Of a DNA stretch of 64,000 bases, positions 26,605-36,091 are shown piece after piece (the stretch's first letter is position 1; each line of letters opens with the position of its first letter). Origin of the DNA: Treponemataceae bacterium (GTDB lineage: Bacteria; Spirochaetota; Spirochaetia; Treponematales; Rectinemataceae). Below the pieces are notes generated by a model. It was not told the DNA's origin. It saw only the letters and a list, made by a program, of their open reading frames with translations, and searched no databases. The translations under genes and the position numbers were made by a program. The DNA lies in assembly GCA_963667725.2 (NCBI GenBank), contig CAXXHO010000003.1:1888001-1952000 (forward strand), given 5' to 3'.

Positions 26605-26734
26605 GACGGGATAACATGATGGGCAGGATTTACAGATAAGAATTTAGGTAAAGAAAAGAAAGAGCGAAGCGATGCTTTTTCTTTCTTTACCTAAAATATT
26701 TTCCCGTAAATCCTGTCTTTGCGTAAGTCCTGTC
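26605..26734. repeat. Long AT-rich imperfect inverted repeat between convergent operons
   Basis: CAGGATTTAC..TTTAGGTAAAGAAA / TTTCTTTACCTAAA..GTAAATCCTG; CGTAA(A/G)TCCTGTC twice (26705, 26722). Confidence 0.75.
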
Positions 26735-27996
26735 TAATTCTTTTCCGCGAAACCCGTCAGCGCGCGGGCGACGAGGTTCGTCAGCGATTCCACCTTCATG
26801 CCCATCGCGTAGTAGTCATTCAGTTCGGTGAGCTGTGTGTGGCAGTTCTCGCAGGCGGTGCAGATGATATCGGCGCGCGCGGCCTTGATCTGATCGACCT
26901 TCACCTTGGCCGACTTCATGCGGAATTCCTGCTCGCCCATCGAAATAAGCCCGCCGCCTCCGCCGCAGCACCAGTTTTCCTCGCGGTTCGGCGTCAGTTC
27001 GACGAAATCGCCGGTGAGGGCGCCGATGACGCGCCGCGGCTCTTCGATGACGCCGCCGTTGCGAGCCAGCTGGCAGGGATCGTGATAGGTGAGACGGCCC
27101 TGAAGCGTGCCCGGCTTAAGGAAAATCCGGCCCTCGGCTATATAGCGGTCGAGAAGTTCCACGATCGACGTCACCTTGAAATCGTGCTTCCCGGACTGGA
27201 ATTTCAGCACGCGAGTGGCCGTGCCGCATTCCACGACGACGACTTCCTTTACGTTGAGGCGGACGGCCTCGTCAACGATGCGTTGGGATATCTTCGCCTG
27301 TTTCTTGGCATCGCCCAGCCAGGCGGCGAAATTGACCGCCTCGAAGTAGCTCAGGGTCCAGTTTTCCTTCGCGGCGTTCATGATGGCCGCGGCCGGAATG
27401 ATGGAGTGCGCGCCCGAGAGCCCGACATAGAGAATGTCGGCGTCCTGGACATCGACGGGGATCGTCTCCCTGCCTTCGGGCGTCGGAGCCAGGGCTTCCA
27501 CCTGGGATTCGAGATTTTTAATGGCTTCCCTGTAGTTTTCGCCCGACTCGACATAGGTCTCGCCCTTGGCGATCGACATGTCGGAGAGCATGGCGAGAAG
27601 CTGGGGCTGCCGTTCCACGCCGATGAGGAGAAGCTTGGCAATGCCCATGACCTGCTGAGTGTCTATGCCGAAGGGGCAGAAGCCGACGCAGCGGCGGCAG
27701 CCCGTGCAGGAAAAGGCGGCTTCATAGGCCTTGTCCATGCCGATATCGCCGAAGGAAATCGTCTCGCCGAGCCAGGGCGCGAATCTGCCCTGAATCTTGA
27801 AATAGCGCTTGAAGAGCTTGCGGATCACCTCGGCCCTGCCGACGGGCGTGTATTTGGTCTCGGGCATCGACGCGTAGACGTGGCAGGCTTCGACGCAGAG
27901 CCCGCAGCGGGCGCAGGTGTCGAGGTAGAGGCGCATGGCCTTGTTGAGCTTGGTCTCGAAAAGGCGCTTGAGATGGCCGGTCGTTATTTCATCCAT
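26734..27996 (-). CDS. DsrK/HdrD/TmcB-like Fe-S oxidoreductase (two ferredoxin-type clusters + CCG domain)
   Basis: CARCGLCVEAC, CTGCRRCVGFCP, YHDPCQL, CCGGGGG, CTACENC. Confidence 0.88.
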   Translation of the reverse strand: MDEITTGHLKRLFETKLNKAMRLYLDTCARCGLCVEACHVYASMPETKYTPVGRAEVIRKLFKRYFKIQGRFAPWLGETISFGDIGMDKAYEAAFSCTGCRRCVGFCPFGIDTQQVMGIAKLLLIGVERQPQLLAMLSDMSIAKGETYVESGENYREAIKNLESQVEALAPTPEGRETIPVDVQDADILYVGLSGAHSIIPAAAIMNAAKENWTLSYFEAVNFAAWLGDAKKQAKISQRIVDEAVRLNVKEVVVVECGTATRVLKFQSGKHDFKVTSIVELLDRYIAEGRIFLKPGTLQGRLTYHDPCQLARNGGVIEEPRRVIGALTGDFVELTPNREENWCCGGGGGLISMGEQEFRMKSAKVKVDQIKAARADIICTACENCHTQLTELNDYYAMGMKVESLTNLVARALTGFAEKN

Positions 27997-27999
27997 GGC

Positions 28000-28737
28000 T
28001 TACCTCCTTCTCAGCATATTCAGCGGCAGGCTGAAGAATGTGTGCACGATCTTGCTGAAGGGCAGAATCATCATGAAAAGTTCGGCCAGGAAGACATGGA
28101 GCACGATGAAATGATAATGCGAACCATGCAGTACGATTCTGGGGTTCATGAAAGTGAAGCTCGAGAGGATGCCGAAGTAGCTGCTGAAATTGGCCTTCGT
28201 CATCACGAAACCATGCGCCGTCCATGAATTCCCCCAGCTAATCATATCCCCCAGAAGGAAGGTGAAGAGAAGGAGAAGAAGTAGGAGATAGTCGGCGGGC
28301 ACCGAGATATGCCTGTTCTCGCCCTTGAATCGCCTGAAAAGAAAGTAGAAGGCGGGAACCGTGACCGAGACGCCGACGAATCCCGCGCCCACCATGTGAC
28401 GGGAAGCCGCCGGCATGATGTTGATGCTTGGGAAGAGGTCCAGATGGCCCAGGATCAGGAAGGCGATGCCCAGATGGAACCACATGAGAAAGAACCAGAA
28501 GACCGGCTTGCGCTTCCTGATCATCGGCATGCCGAAGGTGTCGCCCAGGGCCGCCAGGGCCGAGCGCTTCCTCGCGGGGAAGGTTTTCAGGCTGTAGGCG
28601 GGGGGTGGCGAGGAAAAGATGGAGGCGATCTTCACGGCGATGCCGACCACCATGACGGTGATGGAGATATAGACGAGAGGCACCATGATGAAGTAGTAGA
28701 GGCCATCCAGGAAGAGGGTGAAGCCTGTGGGGGCCAC
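28000..28737 (-). CDS. DsrM/NarI-like di-haem b membrane subunit
   Basis: About 5 TM; His pairs FHLGI..LGHL and LHVFLAE..FSKIVH; S..ADY..L motif. Confidence 0.85.
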   Translation of the reverse strand: MAPTGFTLFLDGLYYFIMVPLVYISITVMVVGIAVKIASIFSSPPPAYSLKTFPARKRSALAALGDTFGMPMIRKRKPVFWFFLMWFHLGIAFLILGHLDLFPSINIMPAASRHMVGAGFVGVSVTVPAFYFLFRRFKGENRHISVPADYLLLLLLLFTFLLGDMISWGNSWTAHGFVMTKANFSSYFGILSSFTFMNPRIVLHGSHYHFIVLHVFLAELFMMILPFSKIVHTFFSLPLNMLRRR

Positions 28738-28746
28738 GGCGAGGCC

Positions 28747-28986
28747 TTACTTTTGTCGCTTCACGTAGAAGCGGATAAGGCCGGAGTCCTGTTTCGTTTC
28801 GAGAACGGCGTTGCCCGTCGATTTAGCCCAGGAAGGGACATCGGCGAGGGAACCCGGGTCGGTGGAGAGCATCTCGACAACCTCTCCCACCTTCATTTTC
28901 GCGACTTCCATGCTGAGCTTGACGATGGGCATCGGGCAGGCGAGCCCTTTGCAGTCGAGCGTCTTCGTGATTGTGTAGTCGGACAT
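28747..28986 (-). CDS. tusA: TusA-family sulfur carrier
   Basis: LDCKGLACPMP (CPxP), TDPGSLADVPSWA. Confidence 0.92.
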   Translation of the reverse strand: MSDYTITKTLDCKGLACPMPIVKLSMEVAKMKVGEVVEMLSTDPGSLADVPSWAKSTGNAVLETKQDSGLIRFYVKRQK

Positions 28987-29011
28987 ATATTTCTCCTTAG
29001 GCTAAAAATGC

Positions 29012-29548
29012 TCAAATGAATAGCTGGACGGCGGATTCCTTGGCGTCGGCGAGGAAGGAAGCCACCCCGACGACTTTCAAGCCGGGATAATCGATCATCT
29101 CTTCCATCTTCATCCCCATGAGATCCATCGACATCTGGCAGATATTGATCTCGACGCCCAAGGCCCCGGCCGCTTCGAAAAGCTGATCCAGGCTGGCGAC
29201 GTTTTTTTTCGTCATGAGGCTTTTAAGCATCGCGGTGCCGGCGCCCGCCATGTTCATCTGCGAAAGCTTCAGCTTGTCGCGCCCCTTCGGGAGCATGAAG
29301 CCGAACATCTTGCCCATGAAATCCTTGCCGCCCGCCTTCTTGGAAGGATCGCGCAGGGCGGCGGTTCCCCAGAAGGTATAGAAAAGCACGACTTTCATGC
29401 CCATCGCCGCCGCGCCGGTAGCGATGATGAGGGAGGCAATCTGTTTGTCCAGTTCGCCCGAAAAAACGACCATGGAGAGCTTGTTCTCCATGCCGGGGGC
29501 GGAGTTCACCTTAGCCTTGAGCTCACTGAGCTCTTTTTCGATGTCCAT
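29012..29548 (-). CDS. DsrE2-like (DsrE/DsrF/DrsH family) sulfurtransferase
   Basis: VVFSGELDK, ATGAAAMG, FYTFWG, ICQMSMDLMG. Confidence 0.88.
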   Translation of the reverse strand: MDIEKELSELKAKVNSAPGMENKLSMVVFSGELDKQIASLIIATGAAAMGMKVVLFYTFWGTAALRDPSKKAGGKDFMGKMFGFMLPKGRDKLKLSQMNMAGAGTAMLKSLMTKKNVASLDQLFEAAGALGVEINICQMSMDLMGMKMEEMIDYPGLKVVGVASFLADAKESAVQLFI

Positions 29549-29571
29549 AGAGTGTTTTCCTTGAGAGAACG

Positions 29572-29874
29572 CTAGTTGTCGCCAGCGCGGCAGCTTTCGA
29601 GACAATGGAGGAGTTCGACGAGATGAGGTTGGGCGAGGCGGTAGACGGCGAAGCCGTTTTCCCTGCGGAATTCGACGAGGTTGGCCATGCGGAGGATGCG
29701 TAGCTGTTGGGAGACGAGCGACTGCGGGACGGCGAGCCTCTCCGCTAGATCGCTTACGTGCGCTTCGCCGCCGCAGAGCTGGGCGACTATCAGGAGCCTG
29801 GCAGGGTGGGAGAGGGCTTTCAGTATCTCGGCTGTTTCGGCGGCGCGGAATGTATCATCCTTGAGATCGGCCAT
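29572..29874 (-). CDS. ArsR/SmtB-family repressor, possibly persulfide-sensing
   Basis: LKALSHPARL, SLVSQQLRILR, VYRL; Cys in QLCGGE and C-terminal CLESC. Confidence 0.9.
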   Translation of the reverse strand: MADLKDDTFRAAETAEILKALSHPARLLIVAQLCGGEAHVSDLAERLAVPQSLVSQQLRILRMANLVEFRRENGFAVYRLAQPHLVELLHCLESCRAGDN

Positions 29875-29893
29875 TTCAGGTATCGTTCCTCTG

Positions 29894-29923
29894 GATATAG
29901 CGATATTATTCTATCGCTATATC
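29894..29923. promoter_or_regulatory. Perfect 12-6-12 palindrome, putative ArsR operator
   Basis: GATATAGCGATA-TTATTC-TATCGCTATATC about 20 bp upstream of the arsR start. Confidence 0.8.
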
Positions 29924-29985
29924 TTTATATGACGATATTCCGATGAGGCTTTTGTGTCAATGAGGGCAAGATACTCCCAGCAAGC

Positions 29986-31425
29986 CTATTCCTTCATGCA
30001 GATGTGCATGGCCGCGGTGGTGAACGCTCTTGGCAGCGCCAGAATGTTGGGCGCGTCGCCGACATATTTCCTCTTCGCGTCGTCGAGCGCTTCCTCGAAT
30101 GATGCCCTTGTTTTCATGCCCATTCCCCGGGCCAAGCCAGGCTTCATGGCGCCGACAATATAGATCGCCGAGCTGTTCATCTCCGCAATATGGGCACAAG
30201 AGACCATCGAAAAGGCATGGAAAGGATGAAAGGCATAGGCGTAGCGATAGAGGTCCGTATATTCCTTGCGCGTCGAGAAGTATTCGGCGTACTTCGCGAT
30301 ATCTGGCAGAATCTGATTGCCGTCCTTCTGGAAAAGATCATACGTTTTTTCATACGAGGGGAATTCCTCCTCGTGCCAGAATCCATTACAGAGTGAGGAA
30401 CAGATGACGACGCAACGATCGCTCAATACGCGCTTATGCCTGAGAATCTGCGCCGAAATCGCCTGCATCATGAGAATCGGATTGGTACCCATTCCATCGC
30501 CGTAGTGAAATGACTGCGGCATACCGAATACCATGACATCGTACTTTTTCTCCGCCCATCGGGCGTAGGTCCGCGTGTCGGCCGAAGCCCAGCACAAAGG
30601 CTGGATGTCCTTCGCGTACCCAGAGAATATCGCGATCTGGTTAGCGTTGGTGTCGAGGACGGCATCGCATACGAAGAACTTCTTCCCCATGCATTTTTCA
30701 ATATACATGCCGATTTGGTCGAATTTTCTCCTCATGAGGCTGTGGGTGCTCGCTGGGGTAAAATCGCTCCTGTGCATCACCTTGGGGTTGTGGTGTTCAG
30801 CGATGCATCGCCAATGCGTGATCCCAGTCGCGCAGTGCTTGTAGCCGCCCGAATAGCCGCCGTAAGGATTGCCCGTCGCGTGGCCGATCAGGACGCAGAA
30901 GTCCGATTCATAGACTTCCTTGTTCACTATCACATGATCGCCGATTTCATCGGAACCCAGATCCACCAGATTGTCATAATCCTCGCTGTCATGATTGGTA
31001 ATCTGCTTTGAATGCCAAAACTCATCGAAGATGCCATCACCCAGCAAAGAGCGGATCTCCTTTTCGGTATTTTTCCGGTGAAGCCCATTGCTGCAAATCA
31101 GTTTTATATCTTTTTTCTCGACTCCTGCCTTATAAAGCTCTTCGATGATGAGAGGAATGGAGATTTTGCGATGGGCGGTCTGCTGAGTCCCGCCCTTAAC
31201 GCGGTCCGGGAACACTATTATAACCTTGCTGCCCTTTTTCACGCTCTCCGAAATCGGTGGAATCCCGATCGGATTCAAAATGGATTTCCTGGTTTCTGCC
31301 ACAATCCGGTCGGAGGGGATTCTCGGCGGATCGGGATAAGTCTCCCCCGGGATGAAGACATCGGTATTTCCATCGGGGAGTTCGGCTTTCATGAATCCCT
31401 GTCCATACTCAAATTCCAATTTCAT
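29986..31425 (-). CDS. LarA homologue (nickel-pincer-dependent alpha-hydroxy acid racemase/epimerase family)
   Basis: LEFEYG, ILNPIG, FPDR, NGLHR, NHD, GGYSGGYK, AEHH. Confidence 0.8.
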   Translation of the reverse strand: MKLEFEYGQGFMKAELPDGNTDVFIPGETYPDPPRIPSDRIVAETRKSILNPIGIPPISESVKKGSKVIIVFPDRVKGGTQQTAHRKISIPLIIEELYKAGVEKKDIKLICSNGLHRKNTEKEIRSLLGDGIFDEFWHSKQITNHDSEDYDNLVDLGSDEIGDHVIVNKEVYESDFCVLIGHATGNPYGGYSGGYKHCATGITHWRCIAEHHNPKVMHRSDFTPASTHSLMRRKFDQIGMYIEKCMGKKFFVCDAVLDTNANQIAIFSGYAKDIQPLCWASADTRTYARWAEKKYDVMVFGMPQSFHYGDGMGTNPILMMQAISAQILRHKRVLSDRCVVICSSLCNGFWHEEEFPSYEKTYDLFQKDGNQILPDIAKYAEYFSTRKEYTDLYRYAYAFHPFHAFSMVSCAHIAEMNSSAIYIVGAMKPGLARGMGMKTRASFEEALDDAKRKYVGDAPNILALPRAFTTAAMHICMKE

Positions 31426-31446
31426 GGCATTACCTTCCTGGTCAAT

Positions 31447-32382
31447 TTATGGCGCCAGATATTCGTCAAGGATATTTTCGAGACCTTCCAGGCTGAAAGC
31501 GATCGGAGGCGTAAATTTTGTCAAAGCCACGAGGCCGCCGTCGATAGTGCATACGCCGGCTATAGCCCTGGCATTCTCGGTCTTTAGTCCCCCTCCATAG
31601 ACGACTGCGGGCGAGTATCCGAGTATTTCCTTCGCTTTGTGCTTGATATAGGCCGAAATTAAGCTAATATACCCGGAATCCGGGGCCGTCTTCCCCGGGC
31701 CGATAGCCCAACGTGGTTCATAGCCGATCGCGAGCTCCCGATCGCCCTGCGCTTTCGTTATCCCCGCGAGTCCCAATTCCAGCTGGCTGCCCAGCACCGC
31801 TTCCACTCGCGGTTTCCGCTCCTCGAGACTTCCCTCTCCACGCTCCTCGGCGGTTTCTCCCACACAATACAGAACATTCAATCCGGCTTCGAAGGCGCGC
31901 AGGACTTCGGCGTTGATGAGGCGCTGAAGCGCGTGGCTTGCCCTTTTCATCGATACGCCATCACGCGTGATATCGGCGTCATACGCGGCCATGATATCGA
32001 GCTTGTCCTTTCTCTCCTCCGAATGGCCGATGAGAGCCCACTCGCAGCCGAGGGCCGCGGCGGCCTTGGCGGGGAAATTGGCGGTGAAGGCGCCGAAGTT
32101 CCCGCCAGGCATGACATCTTCCCTGAAAACCCCCTGGCTGCCCAGCGCCAGCGTATCGCGGGAGGTCAAAGCCGCAGCCAGAAGAGCTTCCCTGGCCGGG
32201 ATAATAAGGCTCTGGGGAAAGAAGTAGATGATACGCAGGTCCTTCCTGGAATGAAGACCCCGCGCGACAGTCCCGCCGATGACATTCCTCGCCCACGAGG
32301 CGGAATCCTTCTCGGGACATATGCCCCCCAGTTCGGAGGGGATATCGAAGCGTTTGAGGTTGACGAATATGCTTGTCATCAA
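31447..32382 (-). CDS. Divergent triose-phosphate isomerase family protein
   Basis: NLK, GAFT, IGHSEER, CVGET, YEPRWAIG, YGGG; 311 aa with insertions. Confidence 0.85.
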   Translation of the reverse strand: MMTSIFVNLKRFDIPSELGGICPEKDSASWARNVIGGTVARGLHSRKDLRIIYFFPQSLIIPAREALLAAALTSRDTLALGSQGVFREDVMPGGNFGAFTANFPAKAAAALGCEWALIGHSEERKDKLDIMAAYDADITRDGVSMKRASHALQRLINAEVLRAFEAGLNVLYCVGETAEERGEGSLEERKPRVEAVLGSQLELGLAGITKAQGDRELAIGYEPRWAIGPGKTAPDSGYISLISAYIKHKAKEILGYSPAVVYGGGLKTENARAIAGVCTIDGGLVALTKFTPPIAFSLEGLENILDEYLAP

Positions 32383-33278
32383 GGACTCCCTGCTGAATTA
32401 TCGCCACTCGCATATTTTTCATGCTCTCCGGATCGATCGCGGGGCAGTTCACCTTCCAAAGCCCTGAGGTATTCCAGGGATTCCCTCGCCGCGACATGGG
32501 GGCTGGGCTTGGGAAGTATTTCAACGCCTATCCATCCGGGGTATTTCATCGCATCGAGGCTCTGGAGTATCGATGGGAAATCGATGTTTCCTTTCCCCGG
32601 CGCGAGCCTGTTGCTGTCGGCGAAATGAATGTATCCGAGAACGTCAGCGTATTCCTTCAAGGTTTTCGGCAGATCCACATCCTCGATATTCATGTGGAAA
32701 AGATCGGCATGGATCTTCAGGTTGGGAATTCCGATCTTCCTGATATAATCACCGACCTCGGCGCAGCTGAACAGATAGTTTGTCTCGTACCGGTTCATCT
32801 GTTCCAGAAGGATGGCGAGGCCATAAGCTCGAGCCTTCGCGCAGACGCGATCCAGGCACTGGGTGAGCTTTTCAAGACCTTCCTCATACGAATCATCCGG
32901 ATCCAGAGAACCGCGCACCCTACTCACGTTGACATCGGCTCCCAATTCGGCGGCAATTTCTATGATACCCTCAAAGTCCTCGACAGCCCTTTCCCTGACT
33001 CCCCTATCCGGATGGGTGAACGAGACCTTCCCCATCGTATACATCTGCCCCGTCGATATCACGGGAATGGCCATATTGTAGCGGCCGGCAAGCACTCTCA
33101 AGGCTTTGGCATCGACATTGCCCTTGTGGTAAAGCGCCAATTCGATCCCATCGTAGCCTATCTCCGAAGCCGCTTTCAGGCTTTCCTCAAGCCCCCTGAA
33201 TACGACGAGAGCCTTGGGATGGCTTTCCACGATCGTGGAAGTGATGCATAGCCTATGCCTTCTGTTCATATATTCCAT
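32379..33278 (-). CDS. Sugar isomerase/epimerase (xylose-isomerase-like TIM barrel; resembles IolO 5-keto-L-gluconate epimerase)
   Basis: GYDGIEL, TGQMY, EQMNRYET, DLFHMNIE, HFADSNR.APG.G; start may be 33269. Confidence 0.85.
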   Translation of the reverse strand: MEYMNRRHRLCITSTIVESHPKALVVFRGLEESLKAASEIGYDGIELALYHKGNVDAKALRVLAGRYNMAIPVISTGQMYTMGKVSFTHPDRGVRERAVEDFEGIIEIAAELGADVNVSRVRGSLDPDDSYEEGLEKLTQCLDRVCAKARAYGLAILLEQMNRYETNYLFSCAEVGDYIRKIGIPNLKIHADLFHMNIEDVDLPKTLKEYADVLGYIHFADSNRLAPGKGNIDFPSILQSLDAMKYPGWIGVEILPKPSPHVAARESLEYLRALEGELPRDRSGEHEKYASGDNSAGSP

Positions 33279-34182
33279 GGTATTCCCTGACGACAGCCTC
33301 GAATTCCCGCAGAATTTCGGCGGGAGGCGAAAGGCAGGGTTCGGAGACCTTCGAGCCGCATACGCCAAGAATCTCGAGCGCCTTCTTTCTCATGATGACG
33401 CCGCGCAGCGATGAATTTATCTGCATATTGAAGCGGTTGACATCATCGACCTGGTTTTGGATCGTCCGTGCGCTCTCCCAGTCCCCTTTTATGGCAGCTT
33501 GCCAGAAGGCAACCATCATGCGCGGAAAAACATTGCCTATCGATGGAACAAGACCGTCGGCTCCGGCCAGCAAGGAATCGAAGGCCACCCTTTCGTTGCC
33601 GCAGAGTACCTTCCAGTCCTGTCTTGCCGTCTTGAACTCAAGCAGGGCATTGAAATATTCCTTCTCGCCTCCGGAATCCTTGATCCCAATAAGCAAAGGA
33701 TGCGGCAGCAGCTGACGGATCGTCTCGACATGAATCTTGGAGCCGACGGTTTCTGGCATATTGTAGAGAATTATCGGAATATCGCTGCCATCGAGAATCG
33801 AGCGGAAGAAAGCTACCTGTTCACTCACTTCAATGACTTTGTAGTAGAAAGGAAGCGTGCTTACGAGGAAATCCGTTCCGCATCCCTGCGCCAGCCTGGC
33901 CAGCTCCAGGGATTTACGGGTTCCGCACTCCCCAATGCCCACGCAGACGGGGATTTTACCATCCGCGGCTTCAGTCACTGCTGTGATGAGCCGTTTCTTA
34001 TCTTCGTCGGCGAGTCTCGGGAATTCCCCCGTGGTTCCGAGGACAAAAAGGCTGTCAACGGCGCCGGCGAGAAGGTAATCGACAAGTCTGCGAAGCCCGG
34101 TAAAATCGACATGCTCCTGGTCATCGAGGGGGGTCACCAGGGGGACGACGATTCCACCCAGAGCGCATGGCGTTTTCATCAT
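33253..34182 (-). CDS. DHDPS-family aldolase
   Basis: VPLVTP, LGTTGEF, PFYY, YNMP, GIKDS; ATGA overlap with SIS gene. Confidence 0.9.
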   Translation of the reverse strand: MMKTPCALGGIVVPLVTPLDDQEHVDFTGLRRLVDYLLAGAVDSLFVLGTTGEFPRLADEDKKRLITAVTEAADGKIPVCVGIGECGTRKSLELARLAQGCGTDFLVSTLPFYYKVIEVSEQVAFFRSILDGSDIPIILYNMPETVGSKIHVETIRQLLPHPLLIGIKDSGGEKEYFNALLEFKTARQDWKVLCGNERVAFDSLLAGADGLVPSIGNVFPRMMVAFWQAAIKGDWESARTIQNQVDDVNRFNMQINSSLRGVIMRKKALEILGVCGSKVSEPCLSPPAEILREFEAVVREYHGIYEQKA

Positions 34183-34790
34183 GGCTTTTCCCTTTTCCCA
34201 AGCTGGCCGGAGGGATGCCATTGGAGGTATTCTTCCTGGTCGATCCCCTTCCGGGCTTGCAGGATGACACTGAGGTTCATCAGCATGAAAAGGCTTACGA
34301 GCATGCTTATCCGAGGCGGCTTGTTGAGGTAGTCGCCCTCGCGTTCCACATGCACATCCAGATGCGCATCTCCCATCCGGGCGATTTCCGATTCGGGAAA
34401 GCCTGTCACGGAGATGATGCGGGCGCCGTTGCGCTTCAGTGTCTTCACGGTGGCCACAAGCTCGGCGACATTTCCGAAATACGAAATCGCTATGACCACA
34501 TCGCCCTTTTTTACCTGGCCGGCCGATCCGTGGGTAGCCTCCGTCCCGTCGAGAAAGTAGCACGACGTCCCCGTGGAGGAAAACAGCGAAGCCATATAGT
34601 TGGCGATATGGTGCGGCTTCCCAATGCCGGTAACATGCAGACGTCCTCCGCTCGCTTCCGCGTCGGACAGCAGGCGCAACGCTTCTTCGTAATAGTTCAG
34701 CGTGAAGCGCTTGGCCGCCGAGGCGATCGCCTTGCTCGCTTCCTCGCCGAATACATTCGCTTGCGCTTCAAGAGATTCCATCATTTGCAT
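34179..34790 (-). CDS. SIS-domain sugar-phosphate isomerase (KpsF/GutQ-like, no CBS domains)
   Basis: HVTGIGKP, SSTGT, EATHG, WHPSGQLG. Confidence 0.85.
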   Translation of the reverse strand: MQMMESLEAQANVFGEEASKAIASAAKRFTLNYYEEALRLLSDAEASGGRLHVTGIGKPHHIANYMASLFSSTGTSCYFLDGTEATHGSAGQVKKGDVVIAISYFGNVAELVATVKTLKRNGARIISVTGFPESEIARMGDAHLDVHVEREGDYLNKPPRISMLVSLFMLMNLSVILQARKGIDQEEYLQWHPSGQLGKREKP

Positions 34791-34804
34791 CCCCTTTTAC
34801 TATT

Positions 34805-36091
34805 CTAGCGCATGAAAGTCTGCGGCAAAAACAGGACCAGGCTCGGAAAATATGTCGTGAGAAGCAGGACCAGAATAAGGACACCAAGCATGGGCAGCAA
34901 TTCTTTTATGATTGTCCCGAGCGGAGTTCCCGAAATTCCGCTGGTGACGAACAAGAGCCCCCCATAGGGAGGAGTCGAGAGTCCGATCATCATGTTCAGC
35001 ACGATGACAACCCCAAAATGGACGAGATCTATTCCGAGCGCGCTTACCATGGGGAGGACTATCGGTATGAATACGAGAGTGATCGTATTCACGTCGATGA
35101 ACATGCCAAGAACGAGGAAGGCCAGGTTGATCAGCGCGAGGAAGACATACTTGTTCGTCGTTATGCCGAGCAGGGCTGTCGCGACGAGATCCGGAATGCG
35201 TTCATAGGAAACCACGAACGACATCCCGAAAGAAGCGGCGACGATTATCGAAATCGTCCCTGTCGATTTGATCGTCTCGAAGAGCATCTTGCCCAGGGAT
35301 TTTATATCAATGCTCTTGTAGAACAGGACGGAAATCAGGATGCCATAGAAAGCCGCGAGCGCTCCCGCTTCAGTAGGGGTCACGATCCCTGTATAGATGC
35401 CGCCGAGCAGGATGACTGGGGTGAGAAGAGCGGGAATCGCCTCAAAAGTGGAGGCCAGAAACTCCTTGAAAGTCTTCATCTCTCCCTTGGGGTAATGCCT
35501 TTTTTTCGAGACGATCGCGACATATACCATCAGTGCCGCGGCGATCAAGACTCCCGGCACCATCCCGCCGAGGAACAGCGCGCCTATCGAGGCGCCGGAC
35601 AACATCGAATACATGATCATCGGGATGCTGGGAGGAAATATCGGGCCTATTGTGGCGGATGCCGCGGTGATCGCGCAGGAGAATCCGTCATCGTAGCCCT
35701 GCTTTCTCATCGCCTCTATCTCCATTATCCCGAGCCCGGAAGCATCGGCGAGAGCTGAGCCTGTCATGCCGGAAAAAATCAGGGAAGCCAGGACATTCAC
35801 ATGTCCCAAGCCCCCGTCGAGTCGCCCGACGAAAGCGTTGGCGAACATGAATATCTTGTCTGTCACCTTCCCGGTATTCATGATCTGGGCGGCAAAAATG
35901 AAGAGCGGGACAGCGATCAGCAAATACGAAGAGAACATGTTCGTAACAATTTTCTCCGCGACCAGAAGAAGCGGCAGACCTTTCAGCATGCAATACACCG
36001 ATACGGCGGTAATGAAGCCGAGAGGGATGGGAATGCGCAGGATGAATATGAGACAGAAAATCGCGAGGAATGCCATGAGCGCGAAATTCAT
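34805..36091 (-). CDS. dctM: TRAP transporter large permease
   Basis: AVPLFI, SGMTGSALAD, PPSIPM, TPTE, STPPYG. Confidence 0.93.
   Translation of the reverse strand: MNFALMAFLAIFCLIFILRIPIPLGFITAVSVYCMLKGLPLLLVAEKIVTNMFSSYLLIAVPLFIFAAQIMNTGKVTDKIFMFANAFVGRLDGGLGHVNVLASLIFSGMTGSALADASGLGIMEIEAMRKQGYDDGFSCAITAASATIGPIFPPSIPMIMYSMLSGASIGALFLGGMVPGVLIAAALMVYVAIVSKKRHYPKGEMKTFKEFLASTFEAIPALLTPVILLGGIYTGIVTPTEAGALAAFYGILISVLFYKSIDIKSLGKMLFETIKSTGTISIIVAASFGMSFVVSYERIPDLVATALLGITTNKYVFLALINLAFLVLGMFIDVNTITLVFIPIVLPMVSALGIDLVHFGVVIVLNMMIGLSTPPYGGLLFVTSGISGTPLGTIIKELLPMLGVLILVLLLTTYFPSLVLFLPQTFMR

Follow-up and report, generated by a model that had tools for sequence, protein, structure and literature searches.

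A five-gene operon, arsR-dsrE2-like-tusA-M-K, was analysed on the minus strand of a 64,000-nt window from a Treponemataceae bacterium (contig CAXXHO010000003.1), K being the Fe-S subunit and M the membrane subunit. The four genes following arsR form a core that we read, by a slight preference, as a DsrMK-type membrane enzyme that would take TusA instead of DsrC as its substrate and use quinol to release the sulfane sulfur of TusA as sulfide. The cassette is real and widespread, resembles DsrMK in its anatomy without being a member of that group and apparently lacks a description in the literature; the changed protein substrate relative to DsrMK is predicted from modelling. An initial annotation of the window had proposed that TusA stands in the place of DsrC, and this is supported by a predicted TusA-K complex and by the position of tusA in the gene slot held by dsrC in neighbouring clades.

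Anatomy and family placement of K and M

K possesses eight dicluster cysteines, five CCG cysteines (308, 343, 344, 382 and 385), which confirm the complete CCG site first read from its sequence, and an extra Cys257. These 14 cysteines are invariant in 34 of 34 sequences and provide two cubanes, one CCG motif and a non-ligating relay Cys, as is characteristic of DsrMK, while the NarI-type di-haem subunit adjoining K likewise corresponds to the DsrMK arrangement. K displays one Pfam CCG stretch, as opposed to the two CCG motifs of HdrDE, and no multihaem cytochrome c is encoded among the five operon genes, the only open reading frame (ORF) of the genome with four CxxCH motifs being located approximately 650 kb away. 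The AlphaFold2 model of K (predicted local distance difference test, pLDDT, 94.3) matches the folds of EtfD and HdrB. Scores of K against the NCBIfam models were 234.3 for DsrK (cut-off 400), 209 for TmcB (cut-off 735) and 180 for HmcF (cut-off 750). Additionally, Thr259 sits where DsrK has the His of its ECGH motif, and Cys385 is kept where many DsrK have Asp; at the former position, 33 of 42 clade members carry Thr and 10 of 10 DsrK carry His.

Trees of 95, 88 and 32 rows, labelled according to the NCBIfam scores of 55 representatives, each placed the tusA-linked K proteins in a single clade (Shimodaira-Hasegawa approximate likelihood ratio support of 99; 95/99 in the careful tree). This clade lies outside DsrK and TmcB/HmcF; its sister group is unsettled, and TmcB/HmcF may be the nearest named group (support 86/64). 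Furthermore, an approximately unbiased (AU) test on 32 of the 88 rows (LG+G4) rejected the grouping of K with eight DsrK sequences (p 1.1e-60) and that of the whole TusA-linked clade with DsrK (p 0.012). K belongs to a clade of its own and is not DsrK, TmcB or HmcF, and its separation from true DsrK, which the initial annotation had named as a check, is thereby established. Members of this clade are annotated DsrK in databases, which can mislead metagenomic calls of sulfate reduction; one from an Olavius algarvensis symbiont is likely to be wrongly annotated in this manner. A short Ferroglobus placidus homologue of 355 aa may also belong to the TusA-linked clade.

The identification of M as a membrane subunit with four haem-ligating histidines was upheld: His88, His214 and His232 are present in 33 of 33 sequences and His98 in 32 of 33, in a NarI-type protein (PF02665) with five hydrophobic segments. 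The best fold match of its AlphaFold2 model (pLDDT 84.6) is NarI (template modelling score 0.62), and a sequence search of the PDB with M returned chance matches only. M retains both haems as well as the Gly-His pair at positions 97-98, which we take to correspond to NarI Gly65-His66. An open quinol site is described for NarI and stand-alone DsrM (bioRxiv 10.64898/2026.08.25.746951).

Predicted docking of TusA on K

Co-folding of K with TusA and three clusters, a test suggested by the initial annotation, predicted a complex with a score of 0.81 (runs 0.81, 0.78 and 0.81), compared to 0.02 for the best of three controls. In calibration, 116 of 157 solved pairs attained the docking mark versus 2 of 215 mismatched pairs, counts that apply only roughly to the present case (own alignments, clusters included). 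The runs agreed in at least 90% of contacts, with a partner pLDDT of at least 87. The interface comprises TusA residues 16-18 and K residues 133-162, 193-199, 217-223, 351-354, 383 and 387, of which 217-223, 383 and 387 adjoin the CCG ligands. Since neither sequence nor fold comparison detected a DsrK-like chain in the PDB copies, recall of a DsrK-DsrC complex by the model is unlikely. The co-fold model thus supports TusA-K binding as a prediction. Additionally, six of 12 clade-diagnostic residues fall within the 37 interface residues among 405 positions (Fisher p 2.4e-4), an enrichment that is weakened as evidence because the clade labels are carried by related sequences and because a switch to any other substrate would leave its mark on this face.

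A cryo-electron microscopy preprint places His210, Phe258 and Glu292 at the DsrC site of DsrK, with Cys329 as the relay, and reports that Glu292 binds the DsrC sulfur intermediate (bioRxiv 10.64898/2026.08.25.746951). Transfer of positions by their distance from the relay Cys places Glu292 on a Glu that is aligned with K Glu219 in five of six DsrK sequences, and His210 and Phe258 fall on segments near K 143 and 194; this mapping is indirect, the Archaeoglobus sequence itself not being among those aligned. As the interface coincides with these offset-mapped residues, TusA is predicted to bind the face of K that corresponds to the DsrC-binding face of DsrK.

Conservation, carrier slot and independence of Dsr

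Of 15 close loci, three end too near K, leaving 12 informative ones; the order dsrE2-tusA-M-K is kept in 11 of these, two of them titled Bacillota, the remaining locus (L020) having M-K only. A phylum sample of 301 genomes contained 27 others with a match at approximately 50% identity, and in all 20 of the loci fetched from these distant spirochaetes the order is maintained. The synteny anticipated in the initial annotation therefore holds for these four genes and fails for arsR, which adjoins the core in 6 of 12 close loci and in none of the 20 distant ones, MarR or other regulators occupying its position elsewhere; the conserved core thus excludes arsR. K is present in 17 of 36 genomes of its own family. 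No fixed accessory gene was found, as the genes that recur nearby are tied to particular lineages (a FadL-type porin in 12 loci and MarR in nine). Named homologues in the clade, judged by name only, include those from Desulfobacterales/Desulfatiglandales, Saccharofermentanales and Eisenbacteria.

Linkage to tusA was counted in those 46 of 80 metagenome loci that retain at least 1400 nt upstream: tusA lies beside 32 of 34 TusA-clade members versus 0 of 12 others, and one of the two exceptions does have a tusA, but it is interrupted by an in-frame stop (L084:5025-5231). It adjoins M or K even where the gene order is altered (L108, L112 and L123). In a sample of 401 genomes around that of L017, the six best matches have tusA-M-K, and the next 14 loci fetched have no tusA within 1.5 kb. 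In a neighbouring clade, a two-Cys DsrC is encoded directly upstream of M in five loci, that is, in the slot of TusA. The carrier state requires two changes on the 88-row tree; because kin are not independent, the carrier change counts as one swap, not many.

The five dsrC-M-K loci (L137:4876-5196, L138, L139, L144 and L148) have an M without the His of the second haem and are often accompanied by a convergent cysteine-desulfurase-family gene, with no dsrAB seen within these short loci; they possibly represent another Dsr-independent use of DsrC. Other arrangements were also encountered. A spirochaete genome carries a dsrC-M-K-dsrEFH cluster whose K is above the DsrK cut-off (L068:5576-9339), P0011 is a K-like protein fused to a DsrC-like domain, and a close relative of P0011 (L146:7778-8569) is followed by two DsrC-like genes without the canonical two-Cys end. 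At L020:2102-2860, M lacks His98 and the carriers are missing, which has the appearance of module decay.

The absence of dsrAB and dsrC, previously stated for the window, could be extended to the whole host genome (97.0% complete, 6.3% contaminated), in which neither the DsrA nor the DsrC model found a match; DsrB is expected to register on the DsrA model, as it does in Dsr genomes. No sHdrB-type CCG subunit was found in the genome, LbpA and sHdrA not having been searched for. The only other CCG protein adjoins an FAD-linked oxidase gene, an arrangement that suggests a GlcF-type protein and makes HdrB or sHdrB unlikely. DsrA and DsrC are both encoded in 12 of 42 carrier genomes and both missing from the other 30, so that DsrC cannot be the general substrate; both are also lacking in 15 of the 27 carriers that are at least 90% complete. 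The two Dsr-positive carriers that were checked encode a separate true DsrK (698 and 737 bits).

Sulfur carriers and regulator

The claim of a TusA with a CPMP motif was substantiated by a PF01206 match and by Cys17, which is conserved in 32 of 32 sequences; the protein thus bears the CPxP signature of the family and scores below the cut-offs of the E. coli TusA and YedF equivalogs. The genome's second TusA-family gene adjoins a SelD-type gene and is unconnected to the operon, and a selenium link was rejected. The DsrE2-like label survives at the level of the PF13686 family only, as the score of 65.7 is far below the DsrE2 equivalog cut-off of 210. In place of the two Cys and two transmembrane helices of DsrE2A (Allochromatium type), this protein has one Cys, Cys137, conserved in 31 of 31 sequences, and one hydrophobic stretch. 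Its start was placed at the ATG common to homologues, and its nearest structure is 3pnx (E 1.7e-29). ArsR is indeed Cys-bearing, its three Cys being conserved in six of six orthologues and in three further ones. Its nearest solved relatives are BigR (3pqj) and 6o8k, in which the Cys positions are shifted: the first Cys of ArsR lies three residues later, so that the Cys pair of BigR/SqrR is not reproduced.

Proposed mechanism and alternatives

In the favoured mechanism, the DsrE2-family carrier would pass sulfur to TusA, as its homologues suggest, and TusA would dock on K at the face equivalent to the DsrC-binding face of DsrK. M, with both haems and Gly97-His98 kept, would oxidise membrane quinol, K Cys257 would act as the relay, and the TusA-bound sulfane sulfur would be released as sulfide. 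Reactive sulfur may induce the operon through ArsR, given its nearest structures (BigR and 6o8k), and the operon would thereby serve as an inducible electron sink while clearing reactive sulfur. Reduction is favoured because characterised family members reduce, because electrons likely enter from NADH to quinone and because the genome yielded neither an oxidase nor a pathway for sulfur oxidation. In its favour are also the late menaquinone genes, the Nqr-like genes, the lack of a detectable bd oxidase and locus L017:9481-13537, where a CoA-disulfide reductase-rhodanese-TusA-DsrE fusion and an SQR-like gene directly follow K.

Several observations weigh against this mechanism. At approximately -70 mV, menaquinol is poorly suited to reducing sulfane sulfur, -346 mV being quoted for organic trisulfides, and the reaction is thus not obviously favourable. 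Cys257 and the cluster are absent from the contact list of the model, TusA has no swinging arm of the DsrC type, and 33 of the 42 clade members, this K among them, carry Thr in place of the putative proton-donating His of DsrK. Deep members of the TusA-linked clade lack the His ligands of the second haem (4 of 4 examined), and clade members L020 and L097 have no tusA nearby. Furthermore, the genome gave no match for MqnA/D, HemA or ALAD, MenB is below its cut-off, ALAD occurs in 2 of 11 carriers of the family, and the genome already encodes a soluble CoA-disulfide reductase-rhodanese elsewhere.

The same partners could operate in reverse, K oxidising sulfide or the TusA thiol/persulfide, with electrons passing to quinone and TusA being charged as by a cytoplasmic SQR-like enzyme, for sulfide detoxification or sulfur supply. 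Such oxidation is downhill towards menaquinone by established potentials. The DsrE/TusA relays studied to date feed oxidative systems, an oxidative role has been proposed for DsrMK in sulfur oxidisers and cable bacteria, DsrC can receive sulfur atoms from DsrMKJOP (bioRxiv 10.64898/2026.08.25.746951), and an SQR-like gene is nearby at one locus (L017). The host genome, on the other hand, yielded neither an rDsr nor an sHdr system for onward sulfur (LbpA and sHdrA not searched for) nor a bd oxidase by which quinol could be re-oxidised, the sole candidate sink seen being a tetrahaem cytochrome paired with a Tat flavoprotein. A reactive-Cys repressor, moreover, would be better suited to induction by the substrate than by the product. 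The oxidative direction is considered rather unlikely.

Somewhat less probable again is that the substrate of K is TusA in a more oxidised form (an S-thiosulfonate, S-sulfonate or perthiosulfenate adduct) derived from tetrathionate or thiosulfate, whose reduction would regenerate the carrier. Tetrathionate converts DsrE3A and TusA into Cys-S-thiosulfonates (PMC4175335), a perthiosulfenate has been observed at DsrK, and growth is still possible with a DsrC that has a single Cys (both bioRxiv 10.64898/2026.08.25.746951); such an adduct would be easier to reduce with menaquinol. Set against this, neither the genome nor the recurring neighbours yielded a YeeE transporter, cable-bacterial TusA was not loaded by thiosulfate, and K has Cys385 where many DsrK carry the Asp proposed to suit oxygenated sulfur. 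Alternatively, TusA and the DsrE2-family protein might be co-regulated helpers, with K acting on a small-molecule disulfide or persulfide (e.g. CoA persulfide) or directly on the DsrE2-family protein. HdrD relatives do act on small heterodisulfides, and two clade members have no tusA nearby; yet both look degenerate (L020 without His98, L097 on a long branch), and the docking score of TusA on K and the persistence of tusA next to M or K through changes of gene order make this option improbable. That the operon is an ordinary DsrMK or Tmc/Hmc fragment, with dsrABC elsewhere or unassembled, can be dismissed as scarcely credible: DsrK is the top NCBIfam match of K, one homologue is annotated DsrK by its submitter and 12 of 42 carriers have Dsr, but the score is 234 against 400, 30 of 42 carriers lack DsrA/DsrC, both Dsr-positive carriers checked have a separate DsrK and the AU test rejects the grouping.

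Cofactor supply and electron routes in the host

A menaquinone-type decarboxylase (above its cut-off), a prenyltransferase and UbiX are encoded in a row (G000:C3:1835863-1841531; L169:7864-13532), and the prenyltransferase is present in 21 of 23 family genomes. An ABC transporter that follows these genes may form part of a unit for salvage of a quinone precursor. With the early genes for both not found, haem and quinone precursor would need to be salvaged, and haem probably is, since a tetrahaem cytochrome gene is present without HemA/ALAD matches. The module is therefore not self-contained as first described, its enzyme requiring haem and quinone whose de novo synthesis is apparently missing in the genome. 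The tetrahaem cytochrome c gene and that of a Tat-signal flavoprotein lie next to tat genes (G000:C3:1261850-1264374).

Nqr-like B, D, E and F genes occur at G000:C8:10464-14360, only D being above its cut-off and no NqrA being found among the ORFs scanned there; an additional Rnf cluster is located on contig C5. CydA (bd oxidase), complex I/Mrp, a hydrogenase cytochrome b and the YeeE/YedE transporter (PF04143) were not found in the genome, nor was YeeE among recurring cassette neighbours. Psr/Phs was rejected, both molybdopterin enzymes being far below PhsA (286 and 177 versus 694).

Comparison with known systems

DsrMKJOP, the menaquinol:DsrC-trisulfide oxidoreductase that acts last in sulfate respiration (PMC10861901; bioRxiv 10.64898/2026.08.25.746951), shares with the cassette the di-haem NarI-type subunit, two cubanes, one CCG cluster, the relay Cys (K Cys257 = Cys329) and, by offset, the substrate-site Glu (K Glu219 = Glu292). 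The cassette differs in the separate clade of K, in carriers that mostly lack DsrAB/DsrC, in having TusA for DsrC and no JOP, and in a K of 420 versus approximately 540 aa, whose motif reads ECGT in place of ECGH and in which Cys replaces Asp as the last cluster ligand. TmcB/TmcC and HmcF/HmcE likewise have a single CCG cluster with an extra Cys, whereas K scores far below their models and lies outside their clade, and the operon has no multihaem cytochrome. HdrDE of Methanosarcinales also pairs a membrane cytochrome b with a CCG Fe-S subunit but has two CCG motifs where K has one, and a protein substrate is predicted for K.

DsrE-family and TusA carriers with an active Cys, together with a Cys-bearing repressor, are known from the Rhd-TusA-DsrE2 and DsrE3-TusA relays of rDsr/sHdr (PMC4175335, PMC11094781) and from YrkE/YrkI and CstA (PMC9918477). 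In contrast to these, the relay of the operon ends at a membrane MK-type enzyme and not at DsrC/rDsrAB, sHdr-LbpA or a persulfide dioxygenase, and its DsrE2-family protein has one Cys. The YTD cluster (yedE-tusA-dsrEFH type II; PMC12998232, PMC13293266) similarly places tusA beside a dsrE-type gene in anaerobes, while here no YeeE/YedE was found, DsrFH is absent and M-K lies within the operon. BigR/SqrR persulfide-sensing repressors, the closest solved relatives of ArsR, have Cys in the same two helices, but those of ArsR are shifted, with CxxxC in the last helix, and its BigR score is 70 versus 155.

No description of a tusA/dsrE-linked MK module was found in the open PMC and bioRxiv literature, subscription papers being mostly outside this scope. 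DsrM/DsrK-like proteins are noted in genomes without DsrAB (PMC10504309); the supplements of that paper and of bioRxiv 10.64898/2026.08.25.746951 could include members of the TusA clade. A spirochaete is described that grows with sulfur and thiosulfate as acceptors (PMC8477390). If the proposed mechanism is true, it represents an unrecognised sulfide route in anaerobes that are at present regarded as purely fermentative, supplies a gene by which sulfur reduction could be probed in spirochaetes and other organisms without Dsr and polysulfide reductase, and offers a simple two-electron model substrate for studying the chemistry of the single non-cubane site, as in DsrK. A bolder view, which we put forward tentatively, is that a quinol:TusA-persulfide reductase may be the third CCG-type terminal reductase after HdrDE (CoM-S-S-CoB) and DsrMK (DsrC), that with an Nqr-type dehydrogenase it could give fermenters without Dsr or Psr/Phs a minimal, ion-gradient-forming polysulfide/S0 respiration, and that MK enzymes might swap DsrC and TusA as a module.

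Locus layout, promoter and operator

The five ORFs are intact and separated by gaps of 23, 25, 9 and 3 nt (Table 1), in agreement with the closely packed, co-oriented genes of the first description. A sequencing run presumed to be RNA, although possibly DNA, contains contigs over parts of four of the genes and is given no weight as to expression. The promoter-like site, which falls slightly beyond the interval initially considered (26734..29923), matches the consensus at 10 of 12 positions and is the top of four sites in the scanned region (1.3 expected); its -35/-10 spacing is identical in loci L006 and L007. The perfect operator reported ahead of arsR was also recovered, and the inverted repeat is likely, on sequence grounds, to be the operator of an ArsR-family repressor. 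It is the sole match in the window with up to three mismatches allowed (0.00 expected), a scan that demonstrates uniqueness only, the pattern being drawn from the site itself. A related half-site is present 34-54 nt upstream of arsR in nine of nine loci examined, against a background of 24 matches in 8.4 Mb (genome, both strands) for a pattern derived from the same loci. The part of bioRxiv 10.64898/2026.05.15.721447 drawn on contains no operator consensus for comparison. The long repeat beyond K is possibly a terminator, judging from its arms, and is absent from the output of the terminator scan.

Table 1. Features of the operon and its flanks (window coordinates)
Feature	Position	Strand	Details
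ArsR/SmtB-family repressor, 100 aa	29572..29874	-	PF01022; NF033788 above cut-off; Cys34, Cys91, Cys95
PF13686 (DsrE2/YrkE-type) sulfur carrier, 178 aa	29012..29548	-	PF13686 171 bits; single Cys137
TusA-family sulfur carrier, 79 aa	28747..28986	-	PF01206 84.8 bits; CPMP, Cys17
M, NarI-type five-helix di-haem b membrane subunit, 245 aa	28000..28737	-	PF02665
K, DsrK/TmcB/HmcF-family Fe-S catalytic subunit, 420 aa	26734..27996	-	Fer4 dicluster and one CCG
Sigma-70-type promoter-like site	29932..29960	-	-35 TTGACA, 17 nt spacer, -10; predicted
Candidate ArsR operator	29894..29923	.	Perfect 12-6-12 inverted repeat, 9 nt downstream of promoter-like site
Long imperfect inverted repeat	26624..26715	.	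42-nt arms, 71% complementary; between K and convergent GH88 gene

The neighbouring genes serve sugar uptake and degradation, consistent with the fermentative surroundings described at the outset, and include a LarA-family gene. A functional link of the cassette to this gene (sulfur for the LarA cofactor) was rejected, as a LarA gene lies beside the cassette in none of L006-L020. The LarA-family (nickel-pincer) gene belongs to a sugar-acid-type cluster directly upstream (window 29986-36091), which includes TIM-like, isomerase-like, DHDPS-family, SIS and TRAP transporter genes.

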